64,000 nucleotides of DNA from an uncultured Pseudomonadota bacterium. GTDB taxonomy: Bacteria > Myxococcota_A > Polyangia > Fen-1088. The stretch lies in the NCBI GenBank assembly GCA_963737345.1, contig CAVTSM010000003.1:1369616-1433615 (forward strand), given 5' to 3'. Positions 31,061 to 51,619 of the stretch are shown one piece after another (the first letter of the stretch is position 1; each line of letters opens with the position of its first letter). Under the pieces are notes generated by a model. It ran no database searches, was not told where the DNA came from, and saw only the letters and a program-made list of their open reading frames with translations. A program made the translations under genes and the position numbers.

Positions 31061-31067
31061 AGGTTGT

Positions 31068-32768: not shown

Positions 32769-32777
32769 GTTCCGCCG

Positions 32778-34834: not shown

Positions 34835-35515
34835 CTAGGGGCTGCGGTAGAGCGCGGGGAAAAGATCGTGGAGGTGGGCCACCTTCGGCGCGTCGTTGTA
34901 GACGATGTAGGGGTTGTCGGGGTGGCGGGCGGCGTAGTTCTGGTGGTAGGCCTCGGCGGGGTAGAAGGCCTGCAGGGGGGCGAGCTGGGTGACGATCGGG
35001 GCGGGGAATGACTTCGTTTGGGTCAGTTGGGCGATGTAACCGGCGGTCACGCGCTGCTGGTCGGGGGTGGTGAAGAAGACGGCTGACCGGTATTGGGTCC
35101 CCTCGTCGGGACCCTGGCGATTCAGCTCGGTTGGGTTGTGCGCCACGGAAAAGAACACCTGCAGCAGCTGGCCGTAGGTCACCTTCGAGGGGTCGTAGGT
35201 CACGCGCACGGACTCGGCGTGGCCGGTGGTGCCGGTGCTGACCAGCTCGTACTGGGCGGTCTTGGCCTGGCCGCCGGCGTAACCCGAAGTCGCGTCGATG
35301 ACGCCCCTCACGTGTTGGAACACGGCCTGCACGCCCCAGAAGCACCCGCCCGAGAACACGACGCTCTCCTTCGCCGGCGTGGCGGCGCGGGGGACGTCGG
35401 CGGCGGGCGCGGGGAGCACGGTGGCGCCCCGGTCGCCGGCGCGCGCGCAGTTACCCGCCAGGCTGACGGCCAGCGCGGCGGCGGGGACCAGCAAGAACCT
35501 AGAGAAACGCGCCAT
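34835..35515 (-). CDS. msrA: peptide methionine-S-sulfoxide reductase MsrA with an N-terminal signal peptide
   Basis: MARFSRFLLVPAAALAVSLAG..., then VFSGGCFWGVQAVF...GYAGG... Confidence 0.9.
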   Translation of the reverse strand: MARFSRFLLVPAAALAVSLAGNCARAGDRGATVLPAPAADVPRAATPAKESVVFSGGCFWGVQAVFQHVRGVIDATSGYAGGQAKTAQYELVSTGTTGHAESVRVTYDPSKVTYGQLLQVFFSVAHNPTELNRQGPDEGTQYRSAVFFTTPDQQRVTAGYIAQLTQTKSFPAPIVTQLAPLQAFYPAEAYHQNYAARHPDNPYIVYNDAPKVAHLHDLFPALYRSP

Positions 35516-35592
35516 TTGAAGCCTCCTGCCTCTACATACGCGGCAGAAGCCCGCCGGTCACGGTCGCCTCGCCCCTGCCCCGCCTCAGCCGC

Positions 35593-36357
35593 TCAGACGC
35601 CGCCGTACCATTCGTATCCTTGATCGCTCCAATAGCCGCCATTGCGCTCGGGCAGGAAAAGAATCCGCGTCAGGTACTTGGTGTTCTTGTAGCCGAGCTT
35701 CACTGGCGAATAGACGCGCGCCGGCGCGCCGTACGCGGGGCTCAGCAGCGCACCGTCCTGGCCGTACACGACCATGGTCTGGGGGTGCAGCGCGCTGTCG
35801 AGGTCCCAGCTCTCGTGATAATCGTCGTCGAACGACTGGAAGTCGACGTAGCGCGCGTCGGGCAAGAGGCCTGCGCGTCGCGCGATCTCGCTCAACAGAA
35901 CGCCGGTCCGCACCGACACGGCCGACCAGCCCTCGACGCAAAAGTGCTCGAGGCGCAGCGCAACCCGCGGCAAATTCTTCAGCTCGGCCAGCGTCAGGCG
36001 CACCGGGTTCTTGACGAGCCCGCCAACCTCCAGGCGCCACGCACCGCGTTCCTTCTCGTCCCACACCGGCAAATCGTCGGCCACGAAGTACGACGGGAAC
36101 TTCTGTCCCGCCAGCGCCGCGCCCGCCGGGGCGCTGTTCATGGCGTTGTGCCTGAAGAGCGCGCGCTCGACCTTCTCGTTCCAGCGCGTGGCCGCGGCCA
36201 GGATCGGCTCGGCGGCTTTCGGCCCGTTCGAATTGCAGCCGCCCAGCGCCAGCGCGGTCACGCCGCCGGCGCCCGCAGCCAGAAAGGCGCGCCGGTCGAC
36301 GCCCAGCTTTTCGGCCGAATGCCGCACCCGCGCGCCGGGCAGCCAGAGCTTGCTCAT
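35593..36357 (-). CDS. Tat-exported molybdopterin-dependent oxidoreductase (sulfite-oxidase fold, YedY/MsrP-like)
   Basis: Twin-arginine DRRAFLAAGAGG. LEHFCVEGWS with the Mo-ligand Cys. ...YSPVKLGYKNTKYL... Confidence 0.8.
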   Translation of the reverse strand: MSKLWLPGARVRHSAEKLGVDRRAFLAAGAGGVTALALGGCNSNGPKAAEPILAAATRWNEKVERALFRHNAMNSAPAGAALAGQKFPSYFVADDLPVWDEKERGAWRLEVGGLVKNPVRLTLAELKNLPRVALRLEHFCVEGWSAVSVRTGVLLSEIARRAGLLPDARYVDFQSFDDDYHESWDLDSALHPQTMVVYGQDGALLSPAYGAPARVYSPVKLGYKNTKYLTRILFLPERNGGYWSDQGYEWYGGV

Positions 36358-37217
36358 ACCTTCTCGGGGTCAGGCGGCGGCTTGGGCGGCTCGCCCACGG
36401 GCGGCTGCGCCGGTGGCGGGTCGGACTCCGGCGCCTGTGGCTTCGGCGGGTCGCCCGCCGGCGGCTGCGGATTCGGCGCGGGCCGCGGGCTCGGCACCGT
36501 GAACAGGTGAATGAACGGGCGCGCGTTGCGCGCTTCCGGCGAGCGTCCCTCGTCGTAGCCCCCGGTCACCATCGATCGCAGCGAATAAGGATCCACGGCA
36601 AACACCATGAACACGTGACCAAGGGTCAGGAAGACCAGCAACAGCATGGCGACGAAATGCCAGTAGCGCGCCCACACGAATCCGCCCAGGAGGTGCGTCA
36701 GCGGCGCGAGCTGCACCGGCTTCCAGATCGCCAACCCCGAGATCACCGCGACGATGCCGACGTACGGCATCGTGAAGTACGCCATCCGCTGAAGCGCGTT
36801 GTGCTTGCCCTGGCGCGGGTGCTCCTTGCGCAACGCCAGGTAGAACTTCACCATCTCGACGCTGTCGCGCGCGACGCCGCGGCGCGGGACCAGGTCGCGC
36901 CATTCGCCGTGCAGGTAAATGAACCCCAGGTACAGCAGGCCATTGGCGACCAGCATCCACATGGCGGCGAAGTGCCAGTGGCGCGCGCCGGCCAGCCAAC
37001 CCCCGAAGGTCAACCACGTCGGGATCTTGTGTCCCGCGAAGGGATAGCAACAGAAGCTCTCGCCCTTGCGCGCGAACGCCGGATAGCTGTTGAAGATGCG
37101 CAGCCCGCTGCCAATCATGATGAACAGCGCCAGCGCGTTCACCCAGTGGGTGACCCGCACGATCCAGTGATGCCGGATCGGAGGGGCCGAGGCGCTGATG
37201 GCGGGCTGCGCTTCCAA
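36354..37217 (-). CDS. membrane b-type cytochrome (cytochrome b561 / PhsC-like) with a Pro-rich C-terminal tail
   Basis: RVTHWVNALALFIMIGSGL..., ARHWHFAAMW..., RYWHFVAMLLL. The stop overlaps the downstream start by 4 nt. Tail PSPRPAPNPQPPAGDPPKPQAPESDPPPAQPPVGEPPKPPPDPEKV. Confidence 0.8.
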   Translation of the reverse strand: MEAQPAISASAPPIRHHWIVRVTHWVNALALFIMIGSGLRIFNSYPAFARKGESFCCYPFAGHKIPTWLTFGGWLAGARHWHFAAMWMLVANGLLYLGFIYLHGEWRDLVPRRGVARDSVEMVKFYLALRKEHPRQGKHNALQRMAYFTMPYVGIVAVISGLAIWKPVQLAPLTHLLGGFVWARYWHFVAMLLLVFLTLGHVFMVFAVDPYSLRSMVTGGYDEGRSPEARNARPFIHLFTVPSPRPAPNPQPPAGDPPKPQAPESDPPPAQPPVGEPPKPPPDPEKV

Positions 37218-37499: not shown

Positions 37500-40130
37500 C
37501 TATCGCAGCTCCAATTCGTAGGGCAAACGCGCCTCGATGCCCGTATTTCCGGCACGTAACAGGTAGGGTGCCAACAGGCGAACAGCTGCACGCACATCGC
37601 CGGTCAACAGATGCGCGGGCTGCGCGGCCGCCGCCTCCCCGTCGGTCGCGGCCAGCGCGGACGCGGCGCTCGCCACCTTGTGCAAGAGGCCTTTGTTCTC
37701 CGCCGGCAGCAGCGCCAGCTCCGGGAGCTGGTCGTTGCCGAGGGGCACGGCCCCCAACCGCGCGGCCTCGTCAATCGCCGCCGAGATCCCGCCCATCCGA
37801 TCGACGAGCCCGATCGGGCCCGCCAACGCGCCGGTCCAGACGTGCCCCTCGCCGATGGCGTCGACGCGCGCGACGGTCAGGCCTTGCCGCTTCCTTCCGT
37901 CGGCGACCGTCTGAAGGAACAGGCCGTAAAGGTGGTGAATCTCGTTCTCGACGATGGAACGCTCGGCCTCGGTCCAGGGGCGATAGGCCGACAACATGTC
38001 GGCGTGCGCGCCGCGCCGGTAGGTCTCGACGCTGACCCCCAGCGACTCCATCAGCTTCTGCCCGTCGACCTTGTAGCCGAAGACGCCGATCGAGCCGGTC
38101 AGCGTCGACGGCTCGGCGTAGATGACGTCCGCCGGGGCCGCGACGTAGTAGCCGCCCGAGGCGGCCAAATCGCCCATGGACACGACGACTGGCTTGCCGG
38201 CGGCGCGCACATGCTGGATCTCTCGCGCCACCACGTCGGACGCGAACGCCGAACCGCCCGGGCTGTTCACGCGCAGGACCACGGCGCCCACGCTCGGCTC
38301 GCGCCGGCACAGCTCCAGCGCCGCCACCAGCGGATCGGACCCGGCCAGGCCACCGACGCCGAACGGCAACTCGGCGCCGGGCCCGTCCACGATCGTCCCG
38401 TCCACGAAGACCACCGCCACCCGCCGTCCCGGCCAGGCCACCGGCGCCTCGGGCGAGCCGTCCGGATCGCGCACCTCGATCTGCGGGCGGCCCAGCGTGC
38501 GGCGCAGCGCCGCCTCGAGATCACCCTCCGCGATCTGGGCGTCGACCAGACCCGCCAGCGCGGCCGCGCCCGCGTCGAAGACGCCGCGATCGACCAACCC
38601 GCGGACGGCGGCGGCATCCATGGGGTGGCCGGCGCGCGTGCGGTCGGCGGCGATGGCGGCCGTCACCCGCCCAAAGACGTCGTCCAGCAGCTGGTTCTTG
38701 TTGGCGCGAACGGCAGGCGACTGCTCGGTCATCACGAACGGTTCCATCGCGCCTTTGTAGGCGCCGGCCCGCACCAGCTCCAGACGGATGCCCAGCCGGT
38801 CCATCGCGCCCTTGTAGAAGGTGACGTTCTGCGCGACGCCGTTGACGCCCAGCGTGCCGGCGGGGTGAATGACGATCGTATCGCACGCCGCGGCCAGGTA
38901 GTACTCGCGGGTGGACGGGAACGTCAGATACGCGAAGGTCCGCTTGCCCCGCGCGCGCAGAGCGGCGATGAGGTCCCGCACCTCCTCGATGCGCGCGTAA
39001 CCAAGGTCGACGCCTTCCAGCTTGAACAGCACGGCGACGGCGCCAGGGTCGGCGGCCAGCGCGCGCAGGCGCCGCACCACCTGGAAGAACGCGCGGTCGT
39101 CGTGGATTGCCTCCAGGCTCACCCGCGCGACGTACGGCGGGCTGAGCACGGCCGGCTGGCGTGCGCCATTGACGCGCAGGCGGGCCGCAAACCCCACCGC
39201 TTCCGCTGGCGCGACCGGCACGGCGGCCGGCTCGGGTGCCTTGGCGCGGCTCCCTTCGAAGTAGCCGTGCGCCGCCGCCATCAGACCCAGGTGTTCGAGA
39301 TCCACCGTTAGACCAACCCCGGCGTTGGTGTACGCGTAAGAGCCGAACGGCCCCTGCCCGTAGGCGGGCACGCGCTCGGCCTGCGCGTAAAGGCCGAAGC
39401 CGCCGGTCACCTGAACCAGCACGCGCAACCACGGCACGACGCCGGACCAGCGATCGCCCTCGGCGTGCCCGGCCCCCAGCGCGAGCTCCAGCCGCCTCGT
39501 CCCCAGCGGGCGCAGCGCCAGCTCGCCCGTCCACAGGCGCGCCAGCTGCGTCGCGCGCGAGCTGGGGTGGGGCTGGCCGACGTCCTCGACGGTGAACGCC
39601 AGCGCCAGATGGCGGCCGGCCAGCAGCGACAGACCCAGGTCGAAGGTGTCGGTGGCCGCGAACGTGCCGTCCCAGATGTGCGCCCAGGCGGCGCCGATGG
39701 CCGCGTGTCGCCCCAGCCGCAGGGCGTACGCCAGGCGCAGCGTCGTGTGCCCGTCGATGGGCGCGTCCCCCGTCCCGCTGACGCGCGTCAGGCCGAATCC
39801 AACCGCGCTGGACCAGAACGGCGCCGCCAGGTAGAGGCCCGCGCCCCGCCGCGGGATCGTGCCGCCCTGCCCGGCCGCCGCCCCCACGATCTCGGCGTCG
39901 CCGGCCGGCATCAACGCCAGGGCCGCCGGGTTCAGCTCTGTGTCGGTGGCGTCGCCGGTCCCGGCGCGCGTGGCGCCGGTGATGAAGGGGCCGCGCGTGG
40001 GACGCAGGTCGGGGTCGCTGGCCTGCCCGAACGCGCGCCCGGCCCACAGAATCGCCATCACCGCCGCCCGAACCGCGGCGCCGGCCCATCTGCCCCAGGG
40101 ACGCATGTGGTCGGGGCGGAGTATAGTCAT
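37500..40130 (-). CDS. sppA: signal peptide peptidase SppA (tandem S49 domains) with a ~340-aa N-terminal extension
   Basis: LRVNSPGGSAFASD...PVVVSMGDLAASGGYYVAAPAD...TGSIGVFG. An alternative start is ATG at 40104-40106 (MRPWGRWAGAAVRAAVMAILWAGRAFG). Confidence 0.8.
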   Translation of the reverse strand: MTILRPDHMRPWGRWAGAAVRAAVMAILWAGRAFGQASDPDLRPTRGPFITGATRAGTGDATDTELNPAALALMPAGDAEIVGAAAGQGGTIPRRGAGLYLAAPFWSSAVGFGLTRVSGTGDAPIDGHTTLRLAYALRLGRHAAIGAAWAHIWDGTFAATDTFDLGLSLLAGRHLALAFTVEDVGQPHPSSRATQLARLWTGELALRPLGTRRLELALGAGHAEGDRWSGVVPWLRVLVQVTGGFGLYAQAERVPAYGQGPFGSYAYTNAGVGLTVDLEHLGLMAAAHGYFEGSRAKAPEPAAVPVAPAEAVGFAARLRVNGARQPAVLSPPYVARVSLEAIHDDRAFFQVVRRLRALAADPGAVAVLFKLEGVDLGYARIEEVRDLIAALRARGKRTFAYLTFPSTREYYLAAACDTIVIHPAGTLGVNGVAQNVTFYKGAMDRLGIRLELVRAGAYKGAMEPFVMTEQSPAVRANKNQLLDDVFGRVTAAIAADRTRAGHPMDAAAVRGLVDRGVFDAGAAALAGLVDAQIAEGDLEAALRRTLGRPQIEVRDPDGSPEAPVAWPGRRVAVVFVDGTIVDGPGAELPFGVGGLAGSDPLVAALELCRREPSVGAVVLRVNSPGGSAFASDVVAREIQHVRAAGKPVVVSMGDLAASGGYYVAAPADVIYAEPSTLTGSIGVFGYKVDGQKLMESLGVSVETYRRGAHADMLSAYRPWTEAERSIVENEIHHLYGLFLQTVADGRKRQGLTVARVDAIGEGHVWTGALAGPIGLVDRMGGISAAIDEAARLGAVPLGNDQLPELALLPAENKGLLHKVASAASALAATDGEAAAAQPAHLLTGDVRAAVRLLAPYLLRAGNTGIEARLPYELELR

Positions 40131-40141
40131 ACGTCGCGCGC

Positions 40142-40759
40142 ATGACCGACAGCTGGGACCGGCCGCCACCCGACATCACCCCCGCCGATCTTTTCGAGCG
40201 GTGGTTGCCGCAGGCGTTCGCCGCGGCCGGCTGGCGTGCCCCCGCGGGCATCCCGCGGTTGCGTGTGAGCGTCGCGGGCACCACCGGCGGACCGTGGGAC
40301 CTGTCCGTCGCGGGGGAGACGTTGACCGTGGCGACCGGCAGCCGCGAGGCACCGGACATCTGGATGCGCCTGTCCCTGCCGGACTTGCGCGCCGTTCTGG
40401 GCGTCGAAGATCCCGACCTGCCGCCGATTGCGCCGCCCGGCTGGTCGATGCGCGACCTTCTGATCGTCCAGCCCGCCGACGTCGATCTGGTGCGGCAGAT
40501 TTCCGGCCGCGTTGCCGTGGAGATCGAAGGCCGCCGCCGGCGACGCTGGACGCTGGACGTCGGCTTCGGCGCGGCCGGCGTCAGCGCGGGGCGCCCGCGC
40601 ACGACCCTGCGGCTGGACGCACCGACCTTCGAGGGGCTGCGCAGCGGCGCCTTGCCGCCGATGCAGCCCCTGCTCGACGGACGCCTCAAGATCGAGGGCG
40701 ACCGGGCGCTGGCGATGCAGCTGCTACTGCTGATCGGCAGCCGGCTGAGCCGGCGCTGA
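40142..40759 (+). CDS. SCP2 sterol-carrier-like domain protein
   Basis: C-terminal ...LRSGALPPMQPLLDGRLKIEGDRALAMQLLLLIG is an SCP2 pattern. The 3' end overlaps the convergent kinase gene by 36 nt. Confidence 0.6.
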   Translation: MTDSWDRPPPDITPADLFERWLPQAFAAAGWRAPAGIPRLRVSVAGTTGGPWDLSVAGETLTVATGSREAPDIWMRLSLPDLRAVLGVEDPDLPPIAPPGWSMRDLLIVQPADVDLVRQISGRVAVEIEGRRRRRWTLDVGFGAAGVSAGRPRTTLRLDAPTFEGLRSGALPPMQPLLDGRLKIEGDRALAMQLLLLIGSRLSRR

Positions 40760-43700
40760 CGGCGACGCCTCCGCCGCTTCGTGGGGCCGCTTGCCCGAAC
40801 TGCGCGCGGGCGGCTCCCGGGTGGGGGCTTCCTTCGACGGCTCGGGCTCGCTCTTGTCTTCGGGCTGCTTGGCCGTGGCGGGCTCTGGCGGTTTTGCCTC
40901 GACGGGCGCCTCCGCCGGGGCTTTCGCCTCGGGGGCCGACGCGGCGCCGGGCTGGGCCGAATCGTCGGGTGGCGTTTGCTCGGACTCTGCCGCCGGCTCC
41001 GCCGGGGGTACGGCCGCATGTGACGGGGCGGCGGGCGACTCGGTTGATGGCGCCCTTTGGGCCGTGGCGGCCCGATTGATCGCGCGCCTGCGCGCCCCCG
41101 CCGGCGGCGTCGAAGCGGCCATCGCGTGGCGGACCTGCTGCAAATCGCGGGTCAGCACCGGATCGTCCGGCCGTATGACCAGCGCCTTTTGGTACTCGCT
41201 CGCGGCCGCCGGGTAGTCGCGGGCACCGGCCAGGCTTTCCGCGACCAGGGCGTGCGCCGACGGATCCGCGGGGGTCAGCGTCAGCGCCTCCCGCGCCCAG
41301 CGAATCGCTTCCGCCGGCTTCTGCGCGGTCAGCGCCGACTGCGCGCGCGTCCTCAGTGCCGCCGCCACCTCCGCCTCGCCGCCGGCGTGCGCGTCCAGCG
41401 CCAGCGCCACCCGATAGTGCGCCACCCCATCGTCGATCTGGCCGCGATCCAGCTCTGCCTCGGCCTTTTGCACCAGCTGCTGCTTCGCACGCACCGACAG
41501 CCGGTCGGCGATTGCACCACCACCGTCGGCCCGCAAGCTCGCCAGGTGCTCTTTCAACGCCGGGACGTCCGCGAAGCCGAACTTGTCGGCCAGCATCGAC
41601 TCGACCTCGGCGACGCCCAGCCGCAGGCGTTCGGCACGCCGTTCGAGATCGCTGTTCCGCGCGGGCACCGCGGCTGCCGGCGCGGTGGCGGAATCTTCCT
41701 CGGCGTCGCGCGCGGCCGTGCTCCAGGGCAGCCGCCGGTAGATCGGCACGGCGACGGCGGCGGCCACACCCAGAACGGCCAGCGCCCCGGCCCACTTTCG
41801 CGCCGGCGGCCGCACCGGCGGGGCTTGGGGCGACATCGTGCGCGCCCGGCTCCGGGGCCGCTCTTCGCTCCATCCAGGCGACACCGCCGATGGCCCTTCC
41901 GTCGGGTAGTCGATCGCCGGCGGCCCTTGCACCGGCTGCTGCGCCGGCTCCTGTGCGTCGGACTGGGCCACCGCGTCCAGCACCAGCGGCGTTCCGCGCG
42001 ACTCGGGGTCGCGCAACCCGAGCAGCTCGGCCACCGCGCGCGGGCGGCCGAACAGCGACTTCACGAGGTCGTACTCGAGCTGGCCCATCGACTGGTACCG
42101 GCGCTCGGGGTCGGGCTCCAGCGCGCGCATGATGATGCGGTCCAGCTCCTCGGGAACGTCGGCCTTCACGCCGCGCGGCGAAATCAGATCTTTGTCGCGA
42201 TTGAGCTGGGGCGGCGAACCGGAGACCATCTCGTAGATCAGCGCGCCCACCGAGTAGATGTCGGTTCGGTGGTCGACGGCGCCGCCCTCCGCCTGCTCGG
42301 GGGCCATGTATTCCGGCGTCCCCATTGCGACGCCCGGGTTGGTCAGTCGCCGCGCCCGCCCCATGCTGCGCGCGATGCCGAAGTCCAGCACCTTCACGAA
42401 ATCGGCCTGGCCGTCGCGGGCGACCAAGAAGATGTTCTCGGGCTTGAGATCGCGGTGAATGACGCCCGCCGCGTGCGCCGCCGCCAGCGCCCGGCAGATC
42501 TGGATCGCGATGTTGCACGAGCGCGAGGCGTCCAGCCGCCGCTCGTGCGAAAGCACGTCGGCCAGATCGATGCCGTCGAGGTGCTCCATCACGAAGTAGG
42601 CGCAGCCGTCCTCGGTCGAGCCGAAGTCCGTGACGTCCACGATGTTGGGATGACCGATGCGCGAGGCGGCCCGCGCTTCCCGCCGGAAGCGCTCGACCAG
42701 ATCCTGCTGGGTCGAATAGGCCGGGTGCAGGATCTTGATGGCGACGCCCTTGCCGATCTCGACGTGCTCGGCGGCGTAGACGGTGCCCATGCCGCCCTCG
42801 CCGATCTTGCGAATGACGCGGTATCGGTTGTTGATGACCCGACCGGTGAAGTTCAGCCCCAGCGACTCGTCGTCTTCCTTCGGGAATTGCAGCCTGGTGC
42901 TGGACTGCTCCAGCGTGGCGAGTGACACCGCCATCGTTTTGGACGTCCGCCCGTTCGCCGGCACGAACAACGGAGCCGCCGACGCCAACAGCTGATCTCT
43001 GTCGACGCGCTCTTCCTTCATCTGCTGGTCGTAGAGGCTGCGCAGGAACTCGGCCGCGCGCTCGGCGTCCGCCCGCGGCGAGATCTGCGTGATGATCTCC
43101 GACAGCGCCTTGCGCAGCTCCTCGGCGGACTGAAACCGGTTTTCGCGGGCCGGGGCCAGCGCCTTCAGCAACAGCGCGTCCAAGTTCGGCGTGATCCAGG
43201 GCGCCTTCGACGAGGCCGGTTGTACGCGCGGGTGGCGCACCAGCGACATCGCGGTCGCGGCATCCAGATTCGCCAGCTGCAGGTACTGGTTGCCCGTGAC
43301 CAGCTCCCACAGGACGACGCCCAGGCTGTAGATGTCGCTGCGCGCGTCGGCCGGCTCACCGCGCGCCTGCTCGGGCGACAGATAAGAGGCGCGGCCGAAC
43401 ACCACCCCCGGCGCGGTGTTCTCTTGCTTCAGCACACTGCGCGCCAGCCCGAAGTCCGTCAGCTTCACCTCGCCGAAGTAGCTGAGCAATATGTTGGGGG
43501 GCGCGACGTCCCGGTGCACGAGGCGCAGATCCGCATGGCTGTGGACGTAGGCCAGCGCGCGCGCGATCTCGCGGCCGATGTGCAGGGCGACGTCCAGGGG
43601 GATGCGCGTGCGGGTCCGCACGCAGCGGTTCCAGATCTCGCGCAGGTCCTTGCCTTCGACCAACTCCATGGCGATGAAGAACTCGCCGTCCACCTCGCCC

Positions 43701-43936
43701 GCGTCCAGCGTCGGGACCAGGTTGGCGTGGGACAGCCGAAGCACGACCTTGGCTTCGTCCAGGAACCGGTTGGCCTTCGTGTGGTCGGTCTTCTCGGCGA
43801 TGACCTTCTTCACCACGCAAAACTTTTGGAAGCCGATCTCACCAGCCGCAGCAAGGTAGATCGCCCCCATGCCGCCGCGCGCCAGCGGCTTCAGGAGCAC
43901 GTACTTTCCAAATTTGAGAGGAAACGTTTCGGCCAT
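40724..43936 (-). CDS. dual-kinase-domain Hanks-type Ser/Thr kinase with TM segment and TPR-like C-terminus
   Basis: Domain 1: LARGGMGAIY, CVVKKV, HRDVAPPN, DFGLA, SPEQ. Domain 2: GEGGMGTVY, VAIKIL, HRDLKPEN, DFGIA, APEQ. TM WAGALAVLGVAAAVAVPIY. TPR-like repeats at the end. Confidence 0.9.
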   Translation of the reverse strand: MAETFPLKFGKYVLLKPLARGGMGAIYLAAAGEIGFQKFCVVKKVIAEKTDHTKANRFLDEAKVVLRLSHANLVPTLDAGEVDGEFFIAMELVEGKDLREIWNRCVRTRTRIPLDVALHIGREIARALAYVHSHADLRLVHRDVAPPNILLSYFGEVKLTDFGLARSVLKQENTAPGVVFGRASYLSPEQARGEPADARSDIYSLGVVLWELVTGNQYLQLANLDAATAMSLVRHPRVQPASSKAPWITPNLDALLLKALAPARENRFQSAEELRKALSEIITQISPRADAERAAEFLRSLYDQQMKEERVDRDQLLASAAPLFVPANGRTSKTMAVSLATLEQSSTRLQFPKEDDESLGLNFTGRVINNRYRVIRKIGEGGMGTVYAAEHVEIGKGVAIKILHPAYSTQQDLVERFRREARAASRIGHPNIVDVTDFGSTEDGCAYFVMEHLDGIDLADVLSHERRLDASRSCNIAIQICRALAAAHAAGVIHRDLKPENIFLVARDGQADFVKVLDFGIARSMGRARRLTNPGVAMGTPEYMAPEQAEGGAVDHRTDIYSVGALIYEMVSGSPPQLNRDKDLISPRGVKADVPEELDRIIMRALEPDPERRYQSMGQLEYDLVKSLFGRPRAVAELLGLRDPESRGTPLVLDAVAQSDAQEPAQQPVQGPPAIDYPTEGPSAVSPGWSEERPRSRARTMSPQAPPVRPPARKWAGALAVLGVAAAVAVPIYRRLPWSTAARDAEEDSATAPAAAVPARNSDLERRAERLRLGVAEVESMLADKFGFADVPALKEHLASLRADGGGAIADRLSVRAKQQLVQKAEAELDRGQIDDGVAHYRVALALDAHAGGEAEVAAALRTRAQSALTAQKPAEAIRWAREALTLTPADPSAHALVAESLAGARDYPAAASEYQKALVIRPDDPVLTRDLQQVRHAMAASTPPAGARRRAINRAATAQRAPSTESPAAPSHAAVPPAEPAAESEQTPPDDSAQPGAASAPEAKAPAEAPVEAKPPEPATAKQPEDKSEPEPSKEAPTREPPARSSGKRPHEAAEASPSAPAQPAADQQ

Positions 43937-44026
43937 TACAGCTGCCGGCCCCGGATCGTAGGCGATTGGGGGCGCGGACGCGAGACGATTAGACCATTCA
44001 CGGAGCCGGCTTTCCCGTAAGGGCCT

Positions 44027-45862
44027 TCACTCGCCGATTTCAAGGTCTCGGTCCGCCTCCGCGCGGCCCGGGGCCATCGAAGCGCGCTGCACCGCGGCGG
44101 GGGCCCCCCCGAGGGCGTCCTCGAGCGCCGCCACCGACCGGCCCCGGGCCTCTGCGGCTGCCGCGGGGTCGTACCCGATGCCCTGCAGCAGCTCAGCCGT
44201 GGGGTTTCCGGCGACCATGCGGCGCACACCCCGCCAGGCGATCTCCCGAACCGCTGGGTACGAGTCATTCTTCATCAACTGCAGTAAGAGCCCGAGCCGG
44301 CCGGTTTTCGTCGGATTGTCGAGAGGTTGGGGAGCGCGCCCGATCGCGTCGGCGGCGATCAGCCGGGCCAGCGGTCCCCCGCCGCGGATTGCCTCGGCCG
44401 GGGCCGTACCGGCCGCAACCGCGTCGCCGGGCGGATAGCGGGCGGCGCCCCAAAACCGCCGGCTGGCGGCCTGGGCCCAGGCGACCGTCCGGTCGACGTG
44501 GCACCCAGTGCAGGCGTCCGGCCGCCCGGCGCGTGCCGCCCGGGCGGGATCGGGAACCTCGATCCGGTGGCTGCGGTGGACGTCCAGAACGCCGTAAACG
44601 ATCCGCGGCATGTGGCAGGACACGCAGCGAGCCCCCGCCCCGCCCGGTTCGTGGTGCGCGTGCGCCGCCAGCGCCGGGGCGGCGACCAGCGCCTGGTGAC
44701 ACCCGGTGCACATGGCATCCACCTGAGACGCAAAGCGCGCCCGGATCTGGCCGCGCGGATCCCCCTCGTGCATGCCGTGACAGCTGGTGCAGGTCAATGG
44801 CCCGCGCATCGCGCACGGCGACTGCAACAACCCCTGGTATTCGTAGGCGGTCAGGCGGGCGGTGCCGTCGGTCCAAAACCGCGCGGAAAAAGCGGTTGGG
44901 TCGCCGTGCAAACGGGTGTCGCGCCACAGCGGTTCGCTCTCGAGGGCAAGGTCGTCGCCAGGGACGAACGGGTCGCCGTGGGCCAGGAACGGCGCCACGT
45001 CATTGGCGAGGCGCTGCCCGTGGCAACGGCCGCACAGATCGGCCGACCGTCCGGGCGACAGGCGCGACGGATTGACAATTGTCGGATCAGCCGCCCCCGT
45101 GTCGAACAGTCGTCCGCGTCGGGCCGCGTCCGCGTTGCGGGCCACGTGCTCGGCCGCCGGCCCATGGCAGGCCTCGCAGGCGACGCCCAGCTCGGCGACC
45201 GTGGTCGCAAAGTGGCCGGTCTCCGGATCGCGGGCCGGGTCGGGGGCGACGTTGTGGCAAAAGACGCAGTTGTCGTTCCAGCGCGTGACGTGGCGGTCGA
45301 AGTCACCCCCGCCGAAAATCGGCCCTCCGTCGGTCGTGTGGCCCGCGGCCGCCGGATCCGGATCGCGAAACAGAAAGGCGCTGGTCATCGGGAACCAGCG
45401 CCGGTCGACGACACTCCAGGCGATGGGCAGGCGCCAGTACGTGTCGCCGATCTTCGTCAGGTACTGCTGATAGCGGCGCGAGCCCACGGTGCGGTCGACG
45501 GTGGCGGCGCGATCGGCTTGCCCGGCGCGGCGAAAGGTCATCCGAAATCGGCCGTCTGGCGCGCGGTCCATGCGGGCCGTCACGCCCGCCGAAGTCATCG
45601 TCGCGCCGGCAAAGTCCCCCGTGACGAACGCCGCCGTCGCCTCGGCCGTCATCGTCCGGTGGAACGTTGCCTTCCAGGTCGCCAGGTGGTCCAGGTGGCA
45701 ATCGCGGCAAGCCGCCGAACCCACGTATTTCACGCGGTGCAGATCCCGCGGTGTCGCGAGGTCGACGGTCAGCCGGTGCCGCTGGACGGCGGCCGCCGCG
45801 CCCAGGGCGCTTGCGCCCACGACCAGCGTGCCCAGGGCCAGCTTCCAGCGCCGAACGCGCAC
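44027..45862 (-). CDS. exported octahaem c-type cytochrome with a HEAT-like C-terminal region
   Basis: Signal/anchor MRVRRWKLALGTLVVGASALGAAAA. Eight CxxCH motifs: CRDCH, CVFCH, CEACH, CGRCH, CTSCH, CTGCH, CVSCH, CTGCH. Confidence 0.85.
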   Translation of the reverse strand: MRVRRWKLALGTLVVGASALGAAAAVQRHRLTVDLATPRDLHRVKYVGSAACRDCHLDHLATWKATFHRTMTAEATAAFVTGDFAGATMTSAGVTARMDRAPDGRFRMTFRRAGQADRAATVDRTVGSRRYQQYLTKIGDTYWRLPIAWSVVDRRWFPMTSAFLFRDPDPAAAGHTTDGGPIFGGGDFDRHVTRWNDNCVFCHNVAPDPARDPETGHFATTVAELGVACEACHGPAAEHVARNADAARRGRLFDTGAADPTIVNPSRLSPGRSADLCGRCHGQRLANDVAPFLAHGDPFVPGDDLALESEPLWRDTRLHGDPTAFSARFWTDGTARLTAYEYQGLLQSPCAMRGPLTCTSCHGMHEGDPRGQIRARFASQVDAMCTGCHQALVAAPALAAHAHHEPGGAGARCVSCHMPRIVYGVLDVHRSHRIEVPDPARAARAGRPDACTGCHVDRTVAWAQAASRRFWGAARYPPGDAVAAGTAPAEAIRGGGPLARLIAADAIGRAPQPLDNPTKTGRLGLLLQLMKNDSYPAVREIAWRGVRRMVAGNPTAELLQGIGYDPAAAAEARGRSVAALEDALGGAPAAVQRASMAPGRAEADRDLEIGE

Positions 45863-45900
45863 GCGCGCATCTTACGCGAGCGATGCCGGCGTGCCGGTCC

Positions 45901-48810
45901 TCACATTCTTTTTTGAGCCAGGGCCAACCCCGTTTTCGCGCTGGCGTTCTCGGGGTCGAGCTTCAGCGCGTCGGCGTAGGCTTGGGCGGCTTCTTTGTAC
46001 TGGCCCAGTCGGAAATGGGCGTCGCCCAGCAGCACGTGCGCCTTGACCCCGCCGCCGCGGTCGGCGGCTCGCTCGGCGGACTGGACCGCCAGCGCGTAGT
46101 TCTTCTCTTGGAACGCGATCTCGGCCAGGCCCAGCAGCGCCGCGCGCCGGTCGCGCTTCGACTTGGCAGCCTTTTCGAACAGCGCCTGCGCCTCGGCGAA
46201 GCGCTCCGCGTGCAGCAAGCGCTCGGCGTCCTGCAGGAGGTGGCGGTTGTCGGCCGGGACCGGCGTGGCGGCGGCCGTCGGGCGGGTCTTCGCCTTCGTG
46301 CCCGTGTCGCTGTCGCTGTCGCGATCGGTGTCAGCCTTGGCGGGTTCCGCCTCCTCGGGCTCGGCGGTCGCGGAAGGCGGCGGTGGCGCGGGAGGCGGCG
46401 GCGCCGCGACCGGCAGGGCTGGTGCGGCGGGCACCGCGGTCGCGACCGGGTGGTGCGGGTGACGCCGGTGCAGGGCTGCGCTCGTGACCAGGTAGGCGAC
46501 GAAGAGCACCAGCGCGCCGCCACCGCCCGCCGCCAGCCAGGTGTACCGCCACCGCTGCCGCATCCGCTCGTAAAGTCCGCTGGCCTGCGCCGCCCCGCCC
46601 CGCAACGCGCCCAGCACACCGGCCCGCGGGAACTTGTCGGACTCGACGAACGGCGCCATCCCGAACCCGGGGAACAACGTGTTCGCGAGGTTCGCGAGCT
46701 CGCGCCCCATCTCGTCCATCGACCGCGGCCGGTTCGCTGGGTCGAGGGACAGCGCGCGCACGATCAGCGCCTCCAGCTCGGGCGGCACGTCGTTGCGGAA
46801 CGTTGACAGCGCGGCCGGCAAGGTGTTCGCCTTCTTGTGAAGGATCTCCATGAAATTGGAGCCCTCGTAAGGTGCCTTGCCGCTCAGCATCTCGTAAAGG
46901 AGGCCGCCCACCGCGTAGATGTCCGACCGCGGGTCGGCCGGCTTGCCGGCTGCCTGCTCGGGCGCCATGTACTCGGGCGTTCCCATGGTCATCCCCGGGT
47001 GCGTCAGGCGCCGGCGGATGTCGCCGTTGGTGTCCTTCTCGTTCTCGAAGTCGCCGTCGCTGCCGCTCTTGGCGATGCCGAAGTCCAGCACCTTGACGAA
47101 GTCGGGCTGGCCGTCCCGGTTCAGGATCAGCACGTTTTCGGGCTTGAGGTCGCGGTGGATGACGTTGACCTCGTGGGCCGCCTGCAGCGCGCGGCAAATC
47201 TGGGCGCCCACGTGCAGCGTCCGCGCCACGTCCAGCTTGCCCTGCCGGTAGATGAGCTCACCGAGCTCGATCCCCTCCAGGTATTCCATCACGAAGAAGA
47301 ACGCACCGTCGGGCGTGGTCCCCGAATCGGTGACGTCGACGACGTTGGGGTGCGAGATCTTCGAGGCCGCCCGCGCCTCGCGCCGCAGTCGCTCGACGAG
47401 ATCCGGCGTCTGGCTGTAGGCCGGGTGCAAGATCTTCAGCGCCACCCGCCGACCGATGTCGATGTGCTCGGCCTCGTAAACGCGGCCCATCCCGCCTTCG
47501 CCGCAAAGCCGCCGGACGTAATAGCGCCCGCCGACCACGCTGCCGATGACCGCGTTCGACAGCGACCCGCCGCTCGGGTCCAGCGCCCGCTCGGCGGTGG
47601 TCGGCTGGTGCGGCATCTTGGGCGGAGCCGCTGCGGCGGGACTGCCCAGCGCGGCGCGTGCCTTGTCGAACCGGATCGGAATCGAGAGCACCGTCTCGCG
47701 CATCGGCCGCTCTTCGGTGTCCGCCTCGAACTTGTCGGCTCCCGCCTTTTTGTCGGTCGCGATGGGCGCGGTGTTGGCCGACGACGACTTGGCCGACGGC
47801 CGCGGGAACGTGACGGCGTACCACTCCCGCGCCCGAACGATCAGCTGCTCGCGCTCGGCCTGCTCGGCGGCGATGTCCTCCTCGTAGAGCTCGCCCAAGA
47901 ATCTGGCCACCCGGGTGGCGTCCGTCGCCGGCGAGGTCTGGGCCAGGAACTTGGCCAGGTCGTGGCGCAGCTCCTCGCAGGTCGTGTAACGGTCCCTCAG
48001 ATCGGGCGCCAGCGCCCGCAGCGCGATGCGGTCCAGCTCGGCCGGGACCCGGCTGGCGCGCTTGGACGGCGCCGTGATCTCCGGGTTGCGGACGCGGCGC
48101 AACAGCTCGTCGGAGGTGAGCTGATCTTTGGGCGCTCCCGCCGGCCGCGTCGAAGGGAACAGCTGGCGGCCCGTCAGCAGCTCCCAAAGGATGATCCCAG
48201 AGGCGTAAAGGTCGGTCCGGCCGTCGATGACCTCGCCCCGGGCCTGCTCGGGCGACATGTAGCTGACCTTGCCGTAGATGATGCCCGGCGCGGTCTTTTC
48301 AATCTTCAAGGTGGACGACGCCAAGCCGAAGTCGGTGAGCCTCACCTCGCCGCTGTACGACAGCAGCACGTTGGGCGGCGAGACGTCCCGGTGAACCAGC
48401 TTGATGTCGCCGAAGGTGTGCGCGTAGTAAAGGCCGCGCGCCATCTCGCGCACGATGTGCGCCGCGACGTCGACCGGGAACGCGATTCCTTTCTTGGCGC
48501 AGCGGTTCCAGGTGGCGCGGAGATCGCGCCCGTCGATGTAGTCCATGGCCAGGTAGATCTCGCCGCCGGCCTGGCCAGAGTCGAAGACCGGGACCAGATT
48601 GCCGTGCGACAGCCGGACGACCACCTTGGCCTCGTCCCGGAATCGCTGCAGGTACTCCTTGTCGGCCAGGTGCGGCAGCACCGTCTTGATGACGCAAAGC
48701 TTGGCCGTCTCTTCGGGTCCCGACAGCGCCAGATACAGAGCCCCCATGCCCCCCCGCGCCAGCGGCTTGAGCAGCACGTATGGTCCGAACTTCCGGGGGA
48801 AATCGTTCAT
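45901..48810 (-). CDS. dual-kinase-domain Hanks-type Ser/Thr kinase with TM segment and TPR C-terminus (paralogue of 40724..43936)
   Basis: The start was chosen by homology (MNDFPRKFGPYVLLKPLARGGMG vs MAETFPLKFGKYVLLKPLARGGMG); the track ORF extends to 48936. Domain 1 has HRDVSPPN/DFGLA and domain 2 has HRDLKPEN/DFGIA. TPR repeats at the C-terminus. Confidence 0.9.
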   Translation of the reverse strand: MNDFPRKFGPYVLLKPLARGGMGALYLALSGPEETAKLCVIKTVLPHLADKEYLQRFRDEAKVVVRLSHGNLVPVFDSGQAGGEIYLAMDYIDGRDLRATWNRCAKKGIAFPVDVAAHIVREMARGLYYAHTFGDIKLVHRDVSPPNVLLSYSGEVRLTDFGLASSTLKIEKTAPGIIYGKVSYMSPEQARGEVIDGRTDLYASGIILWELLTGRQLFPSTRPAGAPKDQLTSDELLRRVRNPEITAPSKRASRVPAELDRIALRALAPDLRDRYTTCEELRHDLAKFLAQTSPATDATRVARFLGELYEEDIAAEQAEREQLIVRAREWYAVTFPRPSAKSSSANTAPIATDKKAGADKFEADTEERPMRETVLSIPIRFDKARAALGSPAAAAPPKMPHQPTTAERALDPSGGSLSNAVIGSVVGGRYYVRRLCGEGGMGRVYEAEHIDIGRRVALKILHPAYSQTPDLVERLRREARAASKISHPNVVDVTDSGTTPDGAFFFVMEYLEGIELGELIYRQGKLDVARTLHVGAQICRALQAAHEVNVIHRDLKPENVLILNRDGQPDFVKVLDFGIAKSGSDGDFENEKDTNGDIRRRLTHPGMTMGTPEYMAPEQAAGKPADPRSDIYAVGGLLYEMLSGKAPYEGSNFMEILHKKANTLPAALSTFRNDVPPELEALIVRALSLDPANRPRSMDEMGRELANLANTLFPGFGMAPFVESDKFPRAGVLGALRGGAAQASGLYERMRQRWRYTWLAAGGGGALVLFVAYLVTSAALHRRHPHHPVATAVPAAPALPVAAPPPPAPPPPSATAEPEEAEPAKADTDRDSDSDTGTKAKTRPTAAATPVPADNRHLLQDAERLLHAERFAEAQALFEKAAKSKRDRRAALLGLAEIAFQEKNYALAVQSAERAADRGGGVKAHVLLGDAHFRLGQYKEAAQAYADALKLDPENASAKTGLALAQKRM

Positions 48811-49107
48811 TTCACGCGGGCGTTTACCCGGCGGTCCGGCGGGAGGCGAACTGCCGCGCGCCGCGGCTTTGATCGCGTCTTCTTGGGTGGTGGGAGATCG
48901 GATCAGGGGGCCGCTCCTGGTGAGACTTTCCAGCATCGGACCACGTTCAAGTGCTCGCTAATATTGACAGGGCGGGACAGTACCCGGTCGTCATCGACGC
49001 ATTCCGCCCACTTCTGAAGCGAGAGCCCCGTTACGTTCCCGCCGGCTTTCGTCCGGGCACCTGTAGGTGTTGCCCCGACGTCCCCGCCACGATGGTGCGC
49101 AGCGACG

Positions 49108-49135
49108 AAATCGGTGCAATCGGTGGAAATCGGCG
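49108..49135. promoter_or_regulatory. three tandem 9-10-nt repeats AAATCGGTG CAATCGGTG GAAATCGGCG in a divergent intergenic region
   Basis: Read directly. Lies between the kinase operon start (48810/48936, minus) and the response-regulator start (49258, plus). Confidence 0.3.
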
Positions 49136-49257
49136 GGCGCCTCCCGCCCCTTCGGGCGCGCGCACCTCTGGCCGGGTTCCCTCAAAAGGCGCACAATGCC
49201 CGCACCCTGCGGCTGCCCGAGCGCAGGCTTGCGGCGCCGGGCGCACGGAACGCGATC

Positions 49258-50481
49258 ATGTCTGACTACGTCCTGGCGATCGACGACAGCCCGACCATCC
49301 TGAAAGTGATCGAGACAGCGCTGGCCGAGATTGGCCACCGCACCGTGACCGACCGGGACCATGGACCGGCGCTGGCGCGCCTGCGCGAGGCGGGGGCGCC
49401 GCCCCGACTGATCCTGCTGGATGACGCGATCCCGGGGCGCGACGCGGCTGATCTCTGCCGGCGGCTCTCAGCCGACGCGGCGCTGGCGCGGGTCCCCGTC
49501 GTGCTGATGACGACGCGCGGCCAGACCGGCGATCTCGAGGCGCGCCTCGCCAAGCTGCCCAACGTGGCCGACAGCATCGGCAAACCGTTCTCGCCCGATG
49601 CGCTGCAGGCCGTGGTCGGGCGCCTCGTCGGCTCCGGCGGGCCCGCGCCGGTCAGTCCGGCGTTGCGGGATGCGCTGGCCCAATCGACCGACCCGGAGCT
49701 GGCCGAGGCGCGCGCCTTCGCGTCGCTGGGGTTCGCCCTGGCCGGGGATCTGGATGCCATCGGCATGGGGCAAGTCTTCGAGCTCCTGGCCGAGCAGCGT
49801 CAGACGGGCGTGCTGCGCGTCGTGAACACCGCCACCCAGGCCCGCGTCGAGCTGGCGCTCCAGGACGGGCGCATCGACTTCGCGACCGCGGTGGGCGTCG
49901 CCGAGGACCTGATGCTGGGGCGCTTCGTTGTCGAGACGGGCGAGGCCGGTCCGGACCGTCTGGCGGCCATCCTGCAAGAGCGCGCCCGCGCGCGCCCTCC
50001 GCTGCCGCTCTTTGGCGCCGATCTGGTCGCGCGACGGATCATCTCGCCCGAAGCGCTGGGCCGCGCGTTGCTGCGCCAGACGTCCGAGCTGGCGTACGAG
50101 ACGCTGCGCTGGTCCTCGGGGTTCTTCCACTTTCGGCGCAATGCTGATCCCGGTCCGGCGGCGCGCGAGGCGGCGCTGCAGATCCAGGTCGATCGAATGC
50201 TGCTCGAAGCGTATCGCCGCATCGACGAATGGCGAGTCATCGAGCGCGAGATCGCCACCTTCGACGAGGTGTTCGTACGCAACGAGGTCAAGATCGACGA
50301 GCTGCCGAGGGGGACCCTCACCCGCGAAGAGCTGGCGGTGCTCGACGAGATCGACGGCCGGCGCACGGTGCGCGATGTGGTCCGCCGGCTGCGGATGGGA
50401 TCGTTCGACGTTTCCAGGATCTTCTTCCGCCTGCGCCGCGCGCGCATGATCCGCCCGCGGCTGCCACCGACGGCCAGCTGA
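49258..50481 (+). CDS. response regulator receiver + DUF4388 (PATAN-associated) domains
   Basis: MSDYVLAIDDSPTILKVI...LILLDDAIPGRD...VVLMTTRG...IGKPF. Followed by LAGDLDAIGMGQVFELLAEQRQTGVLRV... (DUF4388-like) and a second similar region. Confidence 0.75.
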   Translation: MSDYVLAIDDSPTILKVIETALAEIGHRTVTDRDHGPALARLREAGAPPRLILLDDAIPGRDAADLCRRLSADAALARVPVVLMTTRGQTGDLEARLAKLPNVADSIGKPFSPDALQAVVGRLVGSGGPAPVSPALRDALAQSTDPELAEARAFASLGFALAGDLDAIGMGQVFELLAEQRQTGVLRVVNTATQARVELALQDGRIDFATAVGVAEDLMLGRFVVETGEAGPDRLAAILQERARARPPLPLFGADLVARRIISPEALGRALLRQTSELAYETLRWSSGFFHFRRNADPGPAAREAALQIQVDRMLLEAYRRIDEWRVIEREIATFDEVFVRNEVKIDELPRGTLTREELAVLDEIDGRRTVRDVVRRLRMGSFDVSRIFFRLRRARMIRPRLPPTAS

Positions 50482-50503
50482 ATCCGGTACACTGGCGGGC
50501 CTG

Positions 50504-51619
50504 ATGCCGAAGGCGCAACTTCAATCGCTGCTGGATCGAGGCGTGCGGGTCGTGGACGCCGGGCAGGTCTTCGTCGACGACGACGTGGACCCCGCCCGGA
50601 TCCACCCGACCGCCGTGCTGTTTCCCGGCACGCGATTGCACGGCAAGCGGACCTGGCTGGGCCCGGGCGCTCAGGTCGGGACCGAAGGGCCAGCGACGCT
50701 GGTCGACGCGGTGTTCGGCGAAGGCGCCTCGATTGCCGGCGGGTATGCCAAGGGTGTGGTGCTGCTGCGGGGCGCGTCCCTGGGGTTCGCCGGTCACGCG
50801 CGCGAAGGGACCATCCTCGAGGAAGAAGCCTCCACCGCGCATGCCGTGGGGCTGAAGCAGACAATCCTGCTCAGCTTCGCGACGCTGGGGAGCCTCATCA
50901 ATTTTTGCGACGTGCTGATGGCCGGCGGGACCTCGCGCAAGGACCATTCGGAGGTGGGCAGCGGGTTCATCCACTTCAATTTCACCCCCTGGGGCAAGGC
51001 CGGCGACAAGGCGACGCCGTCGCTGGTCGGGGACGCCGTCGACGGCGTGCTGCTGCGCCAAAAACGGATCTTTTTAGGCGGAGCCTCGGGCCTGGTCGGT
51101 CCGCGCGCCGTCGGTTACGGCAGCATCACGGGCGCCGGCCAGGTCGTGCGCCGCGACGTCGGCGCGGGCCGCCTGGTGGTTCACACCAGCACCGCCGTCG
51201 ACGAGCCGTTGGACAGCCCGCGCGACGAACGGATCGACAAGGTCGTCAGCAAGAATGTCGCCTACATCGGCAACCTCCACGCGCTCCGCGCCTGGTATGA
51301 AAAGGTCCGCGCCGCCCGAGCCCGCCGGGCGAACGCGGCCGACCTGGTGGTCGTCTACGAGGAGGCCATTTCCAACCTGGACCTCTGTCTGGCCGAACGC
51401 CTGACGCGGCTCGAGAGCTACCTGGCCGAGCGCGGGCGCAAGCTGCCCCGGCTGACACCGGCCGCGATCGCCGCCTTTCCTGTGGCCATTGACGACGGCG
51501 CCGCAGTCGAGCACGTCAAGTGGGTGCAGTCTCTATCCGCCGCTGACGCCGACAAAGCGCGCACCTGGCTGGCGGCGATCGCCAGCGAGATTCAGCGCGC
51601 ACTGGGTCCTCAGGGCTAG
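50504..51619 (+). CDS. left-handed beta-helix (hexapeptide-repeat) protein, GlmU C-terminal-like
   Basis: Imperfect hexapeptide periodicity and ...GSGFIHFNFTPWGKAGDKATPSLVGD...IFLGGASGLVGPRAVGYGSITGAGQVV. A catalytic assignment cannot be made from the sequence alone. Confidence 0.55.
   Translation: MPKAQLQSLLDRGVRVVDAGQVFVDDDVDPARIHPTAVLFPGTRLHGKRTWLGPGAQVGTEGPATLVDAVFGEGASIAGGYAKGVVLLRGASLGFAGHAREGTILEEEASTAHAVGLKQTILLSFATLGSLINFCDVLMAGGTSRKDHSEVGSGFIHFNFTPWGKAGDKATPSLVGDAVDGVLLRQKRIFLGGASGLVGPRAVGYGSITGAGQVVRRDVGAGRLVVHTSTAVDEPLDSPRDERIDKVVSKNVAYIGNLHALRAWYEKVRAARARRANAADLVVVYEEAISNLDLCLAERLTRLESYLAERGRKLPRLTPAAIAAFPVAIDDGAAVEHVKWVQSLSAADADKARTWLAAIASEIQRALGPQG

Follow-up and report, generated by a model that had tools for sequence, protein, structure and literature searches.

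In the Escherichia coli TorS/TorT/TorC system, the pentahaem cytochrome TorC binds, in its apo form, to the sensor kinase TorS (Gon et al., 2001, cited in PMC10845959). This is the only documented precedent that could be verified of a multihaem c-type cytochrome modulating a membrane sensor kinase. In that system the kinase is a histidine kinase and the cytochrome a member of the NapC/NirT family, and the link forms an autoregulatory loop on the cytochrome operon. The locus described here, in contrast, combines an octahaem c-type cytochrome with two Hanks-type kinases and is known from sequence alone: it consists of three minus-strand genes (K2, the cytochrome gene, and K1, in the order of reading) at positions 40724-48810 of a 64,000-nt stretch of contig CAVTSM010000003.1, hereafter the window, from an uncultured soil bacterium of the Polyangia. 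An earlier, sequence-only reading of the window had proposed an operon-like trio in which periplasmic TPR domains couple kinase activity to the redox or electron-transfer state of the cytochrome, and had named no described pathway with this arrangement. The latter agrees with the literature searched here, where nothing relevant was found on multihaem cytochromes together with Ser/Thr kinases in Myxococcota, or on bacterial tandem-kinase proteins. As to the former, the comparative analysis favours, with a probability of roughly 0.55, a lineage-specific juxtaposition, in which an autonomous gene for a periplasmic cytochrome and a duplicated kinase have come to lie beside an older regulator-kinase module.

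Each component of the trio has described relatives. K1 and K2 resemble PknB-like receptor Ser/Thr kinases (STKs) in that a cytoplasmic Hanks kinase is joined through a single transmembrane (TM) helix to an extracytoplasmic interaction or sensor module, and they are related in layout to the TPR-bearing STK families of Myxococcota ('Myxo1', bioRxiv 10.1101/2025.01.12.632604). The same atlas of bacterial STKs proposes TPR as an interaction module in several families, and a search of its text turned up nothing on tandem or two-kinase-domain proteins. K1 and K2 differ from the PknB-like kinases by their two complete kinase domains, by TPR instead of PASTA, and by an HRDV(A/S)PPN motif in the first kinase domain (domain A). 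Two kinase domains per chain are also found in eukaryotic tandem kinases of unrelated lineages, such as JAKs and the plant tandem kinase resistance proteins. One of the two domains is usually a pseudokinase in these proteins, whereas the catalytic residues of K1 and K2 are intact in both domains. For the cytochrome, the nearest described proteins are OcwA, OmhA, MccA, and cytochrome c554, which PMC9250108 assigns to clade 3 of the NrfA/HAO multihaem superfamily. OcwA of Thermincola potens (PDB 6I5B) is a nonahaem protein on a Gram-positive cell surface and OmhA carries eleven haems, while the window cytochrome has eight, starts with an N-terminal TM/signal helix, and comes from a diderm host. 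Relative to OcwA, it also has an extra beta-rich insert, a HEAT-like helical tail, and an I-x-I-G-E end.

The trio is composed of the following genes:

45901-48810, minus strand: K2, receptor-type Hanks kinase, upstream gene, 969 aa (open reading frame (ORF) and translation, Pfam, orthologue alignment).
44027-45862, minus strand: octahaem c-type cytochrome, 611 aa, GTG start (translation, homologue alignment).
40724-43936, minus strand: K1, paralogous receptor-type Hanks kinase, downstream gene, 1070 aa (ORF and translation, Pfam).

The longest ORF of K2 spans 45901-48936, and its real start was placed at the ATG at 48810 by alignment of 18 orthologous stretches (nine per kinase). This leaves gaps of 38 nt between K2 and the cytochrome gene (45863-45900) and of 90 nt between the cytochrome gene and K1 (43937-44026). 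All three ORFs are uninterrupted and of coding-type composition, with a third-position G+C (GC3) of 0.85-0.90. A product identical to K1 (1070 aa) is present in a public protein collection, and the window cytochrome had no entry in the context look-up.

The cytochrome alignment was scanned against one genome per species (GTDB representatives), which gave relatives in 150 stretches. The best 80 loci, all from metagenome-assembled genomes (MAGs) of Polyangia/Myxococcota and with flanks of up to 8 kb, were analysed, and K1, K2, and neighbouring proteins were mapped onto them. A K1/K2-type kinase adjoins the cytochrome in 28 of the 80 loci, whose cytochromes are at least ~52% identical to that of the window, and in ~20 loci both flanks are visible and the trio is kept. 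These 28 loci also share genes for RNase R, HD, OmpR-type, REC-DUF4388, SCP2, SppA, and MsrQP proteins, and within the clade the whole ~20-kb neighbourhood is as syntenic as the trio itself. In the other 52 loci (43-57% identity; Sandaracinaceae, Polyangiales, and others), no K1/K2-type kinase adjoins the cytochrome within flanks of up to 8 kb. In a neighbour-joining tree the kinase-flanked cytochromes formed one clade nested among kinase-less ones, with the kinase-less locus L027 as sister. Because of this monophyly, the kinase-cytochrome association is taken to have arisen once, in one uncultured Polyangia lineage, and no association of these genes across independent lineages was found among the 80 loci.

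Erosion of the arrangement was seen in basal members of the clade. L001 has a PIN gene between K2 and the cytochrome gene, L003 and L028 have a 184-aa minus-strand ORF at the same place, and in L019 a 1.9-kb gap containing a minus-strand ORF separates the two genes. In L021, K2 and the cytochrome gene are 4.7 kb apart, with three minus-strand genes in the interval and no K1 downstream, and in L025 a hybrid histidine kinase gene is found between the cytochrome gene and K1. The insertions between K2 and the cytochrome gene in L003, L019, L021, and L028 are on the strand opposite to the trio.

The kinases, in turn, are found without the cytochrome. Three neighbours of the trio are of importance here:

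49114-50481, plus strand: response regulator with REC and DUF4388/PATAN domains, divergent from K2 (Pfam).
40142-40759, plus strand: SCP2-domain gene, convergent, overlapping the 3' end of K1 by 36 nt (Pfam SCP2, E=8e-15).
37500-40169, minus strand: SppA (peptidase S49; Pfam), kept downstream of the kinase module whether the cytochrome is present or not.

When metagenomes were scanned with the kinase-A alignment, 80 loci were obtained, most of them with generic STKs; K2-type kinases were present in L084-L088 only, and of these only L087 was informative. It encodes a K2 orthologue (68% identity in one kinase domain and 59% in the other) with the same TM and TPR layout, in the order REC-DUF4388 (minus strand), dual kinase, cNMP-binding gene (minus strand), and SppA, and there was no cytochrome and no second kinase on the contig. 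The L087 kinase has 2840 homologous proteins at E<=1e-50, several of them named Kofleriaceae. Three long contigs (L164, L165, and L166; 0.74-3.7 Mb) have the same cytochrome-less arrangement, making four Kofleriaceae-type contigs with a K2-type kinase and no cytochrome. The SCP2 gene, which ends the co-directional block in the window and is kept in the loci of its clade, occupies the place of the cNMP-binding gene in the Kofleriaceae-type contigs, and REC-DUF4388 adjoins K2 orthologues in the focal clade as well as in these contigs. The deeply conserved unit is, by this gene order, the REC-DUF4388 regulator divergent from a dual kinase, followed by SppA. The cytochrome gene and K1 are, on this reading, later additions in one lineage, and the TPR sensor is older than any neighbouring cytochrome.

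Two candidate transcription signals were found in the gaps of the trio:

45869-45874, minus strand: TAAGAT, -10-like hexamer ending 6 nt before the cytochrome GTG; candidate leaderless promoter.
43955-43983, minus strand: TCGCGTCC-N15-TACGAT block, candidate K1 promoter or regulatory site (gap alignment).

A -10 box directly before the start codon is the classic geometry of a leaderless-mRNA promoter. Of 27 clade loci, the window included, 20 have TANNNT at the 6-nt spacing before the cytochrome start. The loci of this count are related, and the TAA/TAG of the hexamer doubles as the in-frame stop used to define the start, so the binomial P calculated for it is inflated and does not serve as a probability here. 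The motif is also present in L019, L021, and L025, in which the gene upstream is not K2, and in several kinase-less loci. For K1, TACGAT lies at 43960-43955, 18 nt before the ATG, and CTACGAT is found ~18-25 nt before the K1 ATG in ~22 of 28 loci, the remaining gap sequence being divergent. K2 orthologues have ATAAGAT or ATACGAT ~85 nt upstream. A consensus promoter and terminator scan gave no promoters above shuffles and nothing in the two gaps, and missed the conserved -10-like boxes; Rfam had no matches in 39000-51000. Each gene of the trio appears to have its own putative -10 element and the trio is probably transcribed from separate, closely spaced promoters, with read-through possible. 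Elsewhere in the window, TA(A/C)NAT was observed exactly 6 nt before the starts of two other genes, a 128-aa ORF (15621-16007, minus strand) and an M13 peptidase gene (19914-21971, minus strand).

The two kinases have the same order of domains:

48783-47941, minus strand: K2 kinase domain A, aa ~10-290 (Pfam Pkinase).
47517-46720, minus strand: K2 kinase domain B, aa 432-697 (Pfam Pkinase).
46536-46480, minus strand: K2 TM helix, aa 759-777, the only hydrophobic segment.
46236-45907, minus strand: K2 TPR region, aa 859-968 (Pfam TPR).
43894-43136, minus strand: K1 kinase domain A, aa 15-267 (Pfam Pkinase).
42823-42092, minus strand: K1 kinase domain B, aa 372-615 (Pfam Pkinase).
41794-41738, minus strand: K1 TM helix, aa 715-733, the only hydrophobic segment.
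41479-41117, minus strand: K1 TPR region, aa ~820-940 (Pfam TPR), followed by a Pro/Ala/Glu-rich low-complexity tail.

Pkinase matched two stretches in each protein (E=6.6e-88 for K1 and 4.3e-84 for K2), and the TPR scores exceeded the Pfam gathering cut-offs (TPR_2 at 30.8 versus 27 in K1; TPR_16 at 44.3 versus 32.7 and TPR_2 at 37.1 versus 27 in K2). The two are collinear paralogues with 46% identity over ~700 residues spanning both kinase domains, and they fall into two distinct orthologue groups. The Lys, Glu, HRD-Asp, Asn, and DFG-Asp are present in both domains of each kinase: the domain A residues K43, E61, D143, N148, and D161 do not vary among 20 orthologues, and domain B has the canonical motifs GEGGMG, VAxK, HRDLKPEN, DFG, and APE. 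With all catalytic residues in both domains, K1 and K2 are predicted to be bona fide receptor Hanks kinases. The catalytic loop of domain A reads HRDV(A/S)PPN, invariant in both kinases, in which the Lys of the usual HRDLKxxN is replaced (~43480-43503 in K1 and ~48351-48374 in K2, minus strand; approximate positions converted from residue numbers), and the best Pfam model for this domain is the Tyr/Ser-Thr kinase model. Neither protein has an N-terminal signal peptide. Because the kinase domains require ATP and the proteins are without signal peptides, the TPR regions would be extracytoplasmic, in a receptor orientation with the N-terminus inside and the C-terminus outside. Pfam found no small-molecule sensor domain in K1 or K2, the TPR being the sole sensor module.

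The cytochrome is built as follows:

45841-45785, minus strand: N-terminal signal/anchor helix, aa 8-26, a hydrophobic segment after RVRRWK.
45709-44498, minus strand: eight CxxCH motifs, aa 52-455 (translation, homologue alignment).
Cytochrome aa 72-160, minus strand: the beta-rich insert.
44401-44030, minus strand: helical HEAT-like tail, aa 488-611 (AF2 model), ending in I-x-I-G-E-COOH.

There are exactly eight CxxCH motifs, all invariant across 22 aligned homologues; when more loci were counted, eight motifs were present in most of those whose gene is complete and seven in a few, the rest being truncated by contig ends. The protein is thus predicted to be an exported or membrane-anchored multihaem c-type cytochrome with putative haem attachment at CxxCH. 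The search for relatives gave more than 1500, of which the best 120 were near-full-length with 57-81% identity, and those carrying source names are labelled 'cytochrome c3 family', 'CXXCH cytochrome', or hypothetical protein only. No NCBIfam model reached its cut-off (54.9 bits at best, versus 325), and the Pfam matches to Cytochrome_C554, Paired_CXXCH_1, and Cytochrome_C7 were weak. A family profile searched against PDB with hmmsearch matched OcwA (6i5b, E=2.6e-18), OmhA (6qvm, E=9.4e-4), and MccA (E=0.034), the OcwA match consisting of three collinear stretches covering haem 1, haems 2-3, and haems 5-8. In the alignment, the OcwA His-His falls on the conserved H-x-H-H stretch (H401, H404); this His-His may tentatively, on an assumed numbering offset, be equated with the distal-pocket histidines of PMC9250108.

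An AF2 model from the 22-sequence alignment had a mean pLDDT of 55.8, with the haem core below 50 and a helical region at aa 488-594 at 70-90, and Foldseek of the model against PDB gave nothing at E<=0.001. The assignment to OcwA is accordingly one of sequence profiles, since AF2 failed in the haem core and no Foldseek match was obtained. These profiles make the cytochrome a distant relative of the OcwA/OmhA/MccA/c554 branch in the NrfA/HAO superfamily. It is filed here as a putative distant octahaem relative of the OcwA/OmhA clade and not as a member, because it has eight haems rather than nine or eleven and a match of the haem-core fold was not obtained. For the tail, the Pfam HEAT signal (E=0.012, 16.2 bits) was below the cut-off of 23.5, PF13646 was found in one homologue, and Foldseek gave weak matches to HEAT/ARM proteins, none of them significant (YibA had a probability of 0.94 but E=0.42). 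The C-terminal I-x-I-G-E-COOH (44030-44044, minus strand, last five codons) is invariant in nearly all orthologues of L004-L083. It looks like a recognition peptide for sorting, a protease, or partner binding, and no known tag was matched.

Most of the architecture described in the sequence-only reading was recovered by these analyses. The ORF positions reproduce three minus-strand genes separated by 38 and 90 nt, and Pfam places the divergent DUF4388 response regulator where it had been reported. The flanking genes are, by Pfam and alignment, paralogues, each with two Hanks-type domains, a single TM helix, and TPR at the C-terminal side, for which a periplasmic location is again predicted from the single hydrophobic segment, although the orientation itself is inferred. 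The motif count and the N-terminal hydrophobic helix likewise bear out an exported protein with eight CxxCH motifs. The HEAT-like tail fared less well: it is helical in the AF2 model, but its HEAT character is weak.

Taken as a juxtaposition, the locus would have formed when a module widespread in Polyangia, in which REC-DUF4388 is divergent from a dual-kinase/TM/TPR kinase that is followed by SppA, gained, once and in the ancestor of one uncultured lineage, a cytochrome gene with its own promoter and the paralogous kinase K1. The small periplasmic TPR modules would sense by means of protein-protein contacts and the kinases would signal in the cytoplasm, where the REC-DUF4388 protein is, speculatively, a possible output. 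The cytochrome would function independently of K1 and K2, and its role may be periplasmic electron transfer or the reduction of a small substrate; most lineages with the cytochrome keep it away from such kinase genes. Gene structures, domain content, phylogenetic distribution, and the conserved hexamers before the genes are what the analysis shows. I infer the independence of function, the topology, the function of the promoters, and the role of the cytochrome.

Several points weigh against this. Within the clade the trio is on the same strand in most loci, with gaps of ~6-120 nt and 60-200 nt, and the short-gap trio persists across a divergence of the cytochrome down to ~52% identity. Non-adjacency elsewhere is no proof that the kinases are absent from those genomes, as only flanks were compared. 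Read-through co-transcription is possible because there are no terminator-like sites in either gap, and the promoter calls are sequence footprints, not mapped start sites. In addition, all three proteins would place domains in the periplasm, the kinases would need a protein partner because they have only protein-binding TPR modules as sensors, and the non-haem helical tail and the invariant C-terminal peptide of the cytochrome could be a TPR ligand.

One alternative is that the cytochrome is a periplasmic co-sensor, of which the redox, electron-transfer, or apo/holo state is read by the TPR region of K1 and/or K2 and sets kinase activity. I consider this unlikely. Tight packing on one strand and the retention of the trio in ~20 loci would fit a co-sensor, but the association has a single origin and is conserved no better than unrelated neighbours. 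The genes seem to have promoter-like elements of their own, and in some relatives opposite-strand genes have come between them. The haem domain and tail would be in one compartment with the TPR regions, and the kinases are without any small-molecule sensor domain, yet K2-type kinases retain TM helix and TPR where there is no cytochrome. The C-terminal peptide and the helical repeat tail fit protein binding, but both are kept along with the eight haems in kinase-less loci and are equally conserved with or without an adjacent kinase, the eight haems and I-x-I-G-E being older than the kinase link. Moreover, the putative contact parts evolve fastest, with identities of 33-64% for the tail and 34-93% for the K1 TPR compared with 74-98% for the kinase domains in most loci. 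The proposal that I-x-I-G-E evolved for the trio as a ligand of the kinase TPR was rejected as evidence, given its invariance in kinase-less contexts. Also on the side of a co-sensor is the precedent of apo-TorC binding TorS (PMC10845959), which comes closest to the proposal of the sequence-only reading.

An indirect link is also improbable, in which the three genes share their regulation, or K1 and K2 act via cytoplasmic targets such as REC-DUF4388 on the expression or turnover of the cytochrome, without TPR contact. The co-directional tight packing without gap terminators agrees with it, and the similar TA(A/C)GAT boxes before all three genes may point to one sigma factor or regulator for all of them; beyond these -10-like boxes, however, no common regulator site was identified, and the association is clade-restricted. 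A further argument for an indirect link is that the cytochrome of the other clade also lies directly downstream of signalling genes. In 32 of the 52 kinase-less loci, the gene directly upstream of the cytochrome encodes a cytoplasmic, STAND-like AAA_16/TPR protein with Zn-ribbon, AAA_16, and TPR (loci within L030-L083; for example L045:5039-7909), and many of the 52 have a wider set of genes for an ECF sigma factor, FecR-like protein, polysaccharide deacetylase, AAA_16/TPR protein, cytochrome, TrmB-like methyltransferase, REC, and class-I aminoacyl-tRNA synthetase. As an observation in its own right, this kinase-less context joins the cytochrome a second time, and independently, to genes of signalling (ECF sigma, FecR-like anti-sigma, and AAA_16/TPR).

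More doubtful still is an elaborate form of co-sensing, in which the octahaem cytochrome, anchored in the membrane, was recruited in this lineage as a periplasmic redox co-sensor for two paralogous, possibly heteromeric, dual-kinase receptors, with the TPR binding the tail or I-x-I-G-E. Finally, an annotation artefact, with fused or frameshifted kinases or a cytochrome pseudogene, would be suggested by the frameshift-like splits of K2 in some MAG loci (L002 and L026) and is practically ruled out by the intact window ORFs with their coding-type GC3, by full-length orthologues among the 2840 dual-kinase proteins, by the many cytochrome relatives, the best 120 near-full-length, and by the haem motifs, invariant in the 22 aligned homologues.

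The juxtaposition thus retains the best fit, and the operon-like, redox-coupled trio of the sequence-only reading stands in part. As an operon, the trio has one strand, short gaps, and no terminator in the gaps on its side, but the sequence footprints suggest internal promoters, and in relatives it is interrupted by opposite-strand genes. Synteny is kept in one monophyletic sub-clade, but unrelated neighbours are kept equally and 52 loci have no such kinase beside the cytochrome. The idea of a redox-coupled kinase agrees with the predicted topology, whereas synteny and promoters speak against it in part.

Further observations concern the surroundings of the trio. The Rec domain of the window DUF4388 regulator starts at residue 53 of the longest ORF, versus residue 6 in L087, and the true start of the regulator is probably ~45 codons past 49114 (49114-49270, plus strand), in which case the divergent intergenic region would be ~440 nt. 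Conserved genes without a Pfam match were seen beside REC-DUF4388: in the window, one for a 371-aa protein with one hydrophobic segment (50504-51619, plus strand), and in relatives, one for a 542-aa protein (L001:4408-6036, minus strand). Beyond SppA, Pfam identified a pair of cytochrome b561 and molybdopterin oxidoreductase (MsrQ/MsrP-like), and then MsrA. These form a methionine-sulfoxide repair cluster at 34835-37217 (minus strand), which is conserved in close relatives. The G+C content of the window is 0.63-0.65 at 22000-34000 versus 0.74 around 38000-42000.

If true, a multihaem-gated Hanks kinase would be a new route coupling electron flow, respiratory or extracellular, to Ser/Thr phosphorylation. 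The comparative evidence points to a clade-specific neighbourhood rather than a demonstrated sensing machine: the components of the trio are new members of known families, and the trio as a 'system' is not established. Because Myxococcota genomes are rich in Hanks-type kinases, the neighbourhood would be of little surprise to a specialist. The kinases themselves are unusual in their two intact kinase domains and the HRDV(A/S)PPN loop of the first. As by-products, the analysis brings out a leaderless-type promoter signature that is conserved before the cytochrome gene, an uncharacterised and highly conserved family of octahaem cytochromes that is distantly related to OcwA and ends in an invariant I-x-I-G-E, and a large uncharacterised family of dual-kinase/TM/TPR receptors in Polyangia that is stably paired with REC-DUF4388 and SppA.

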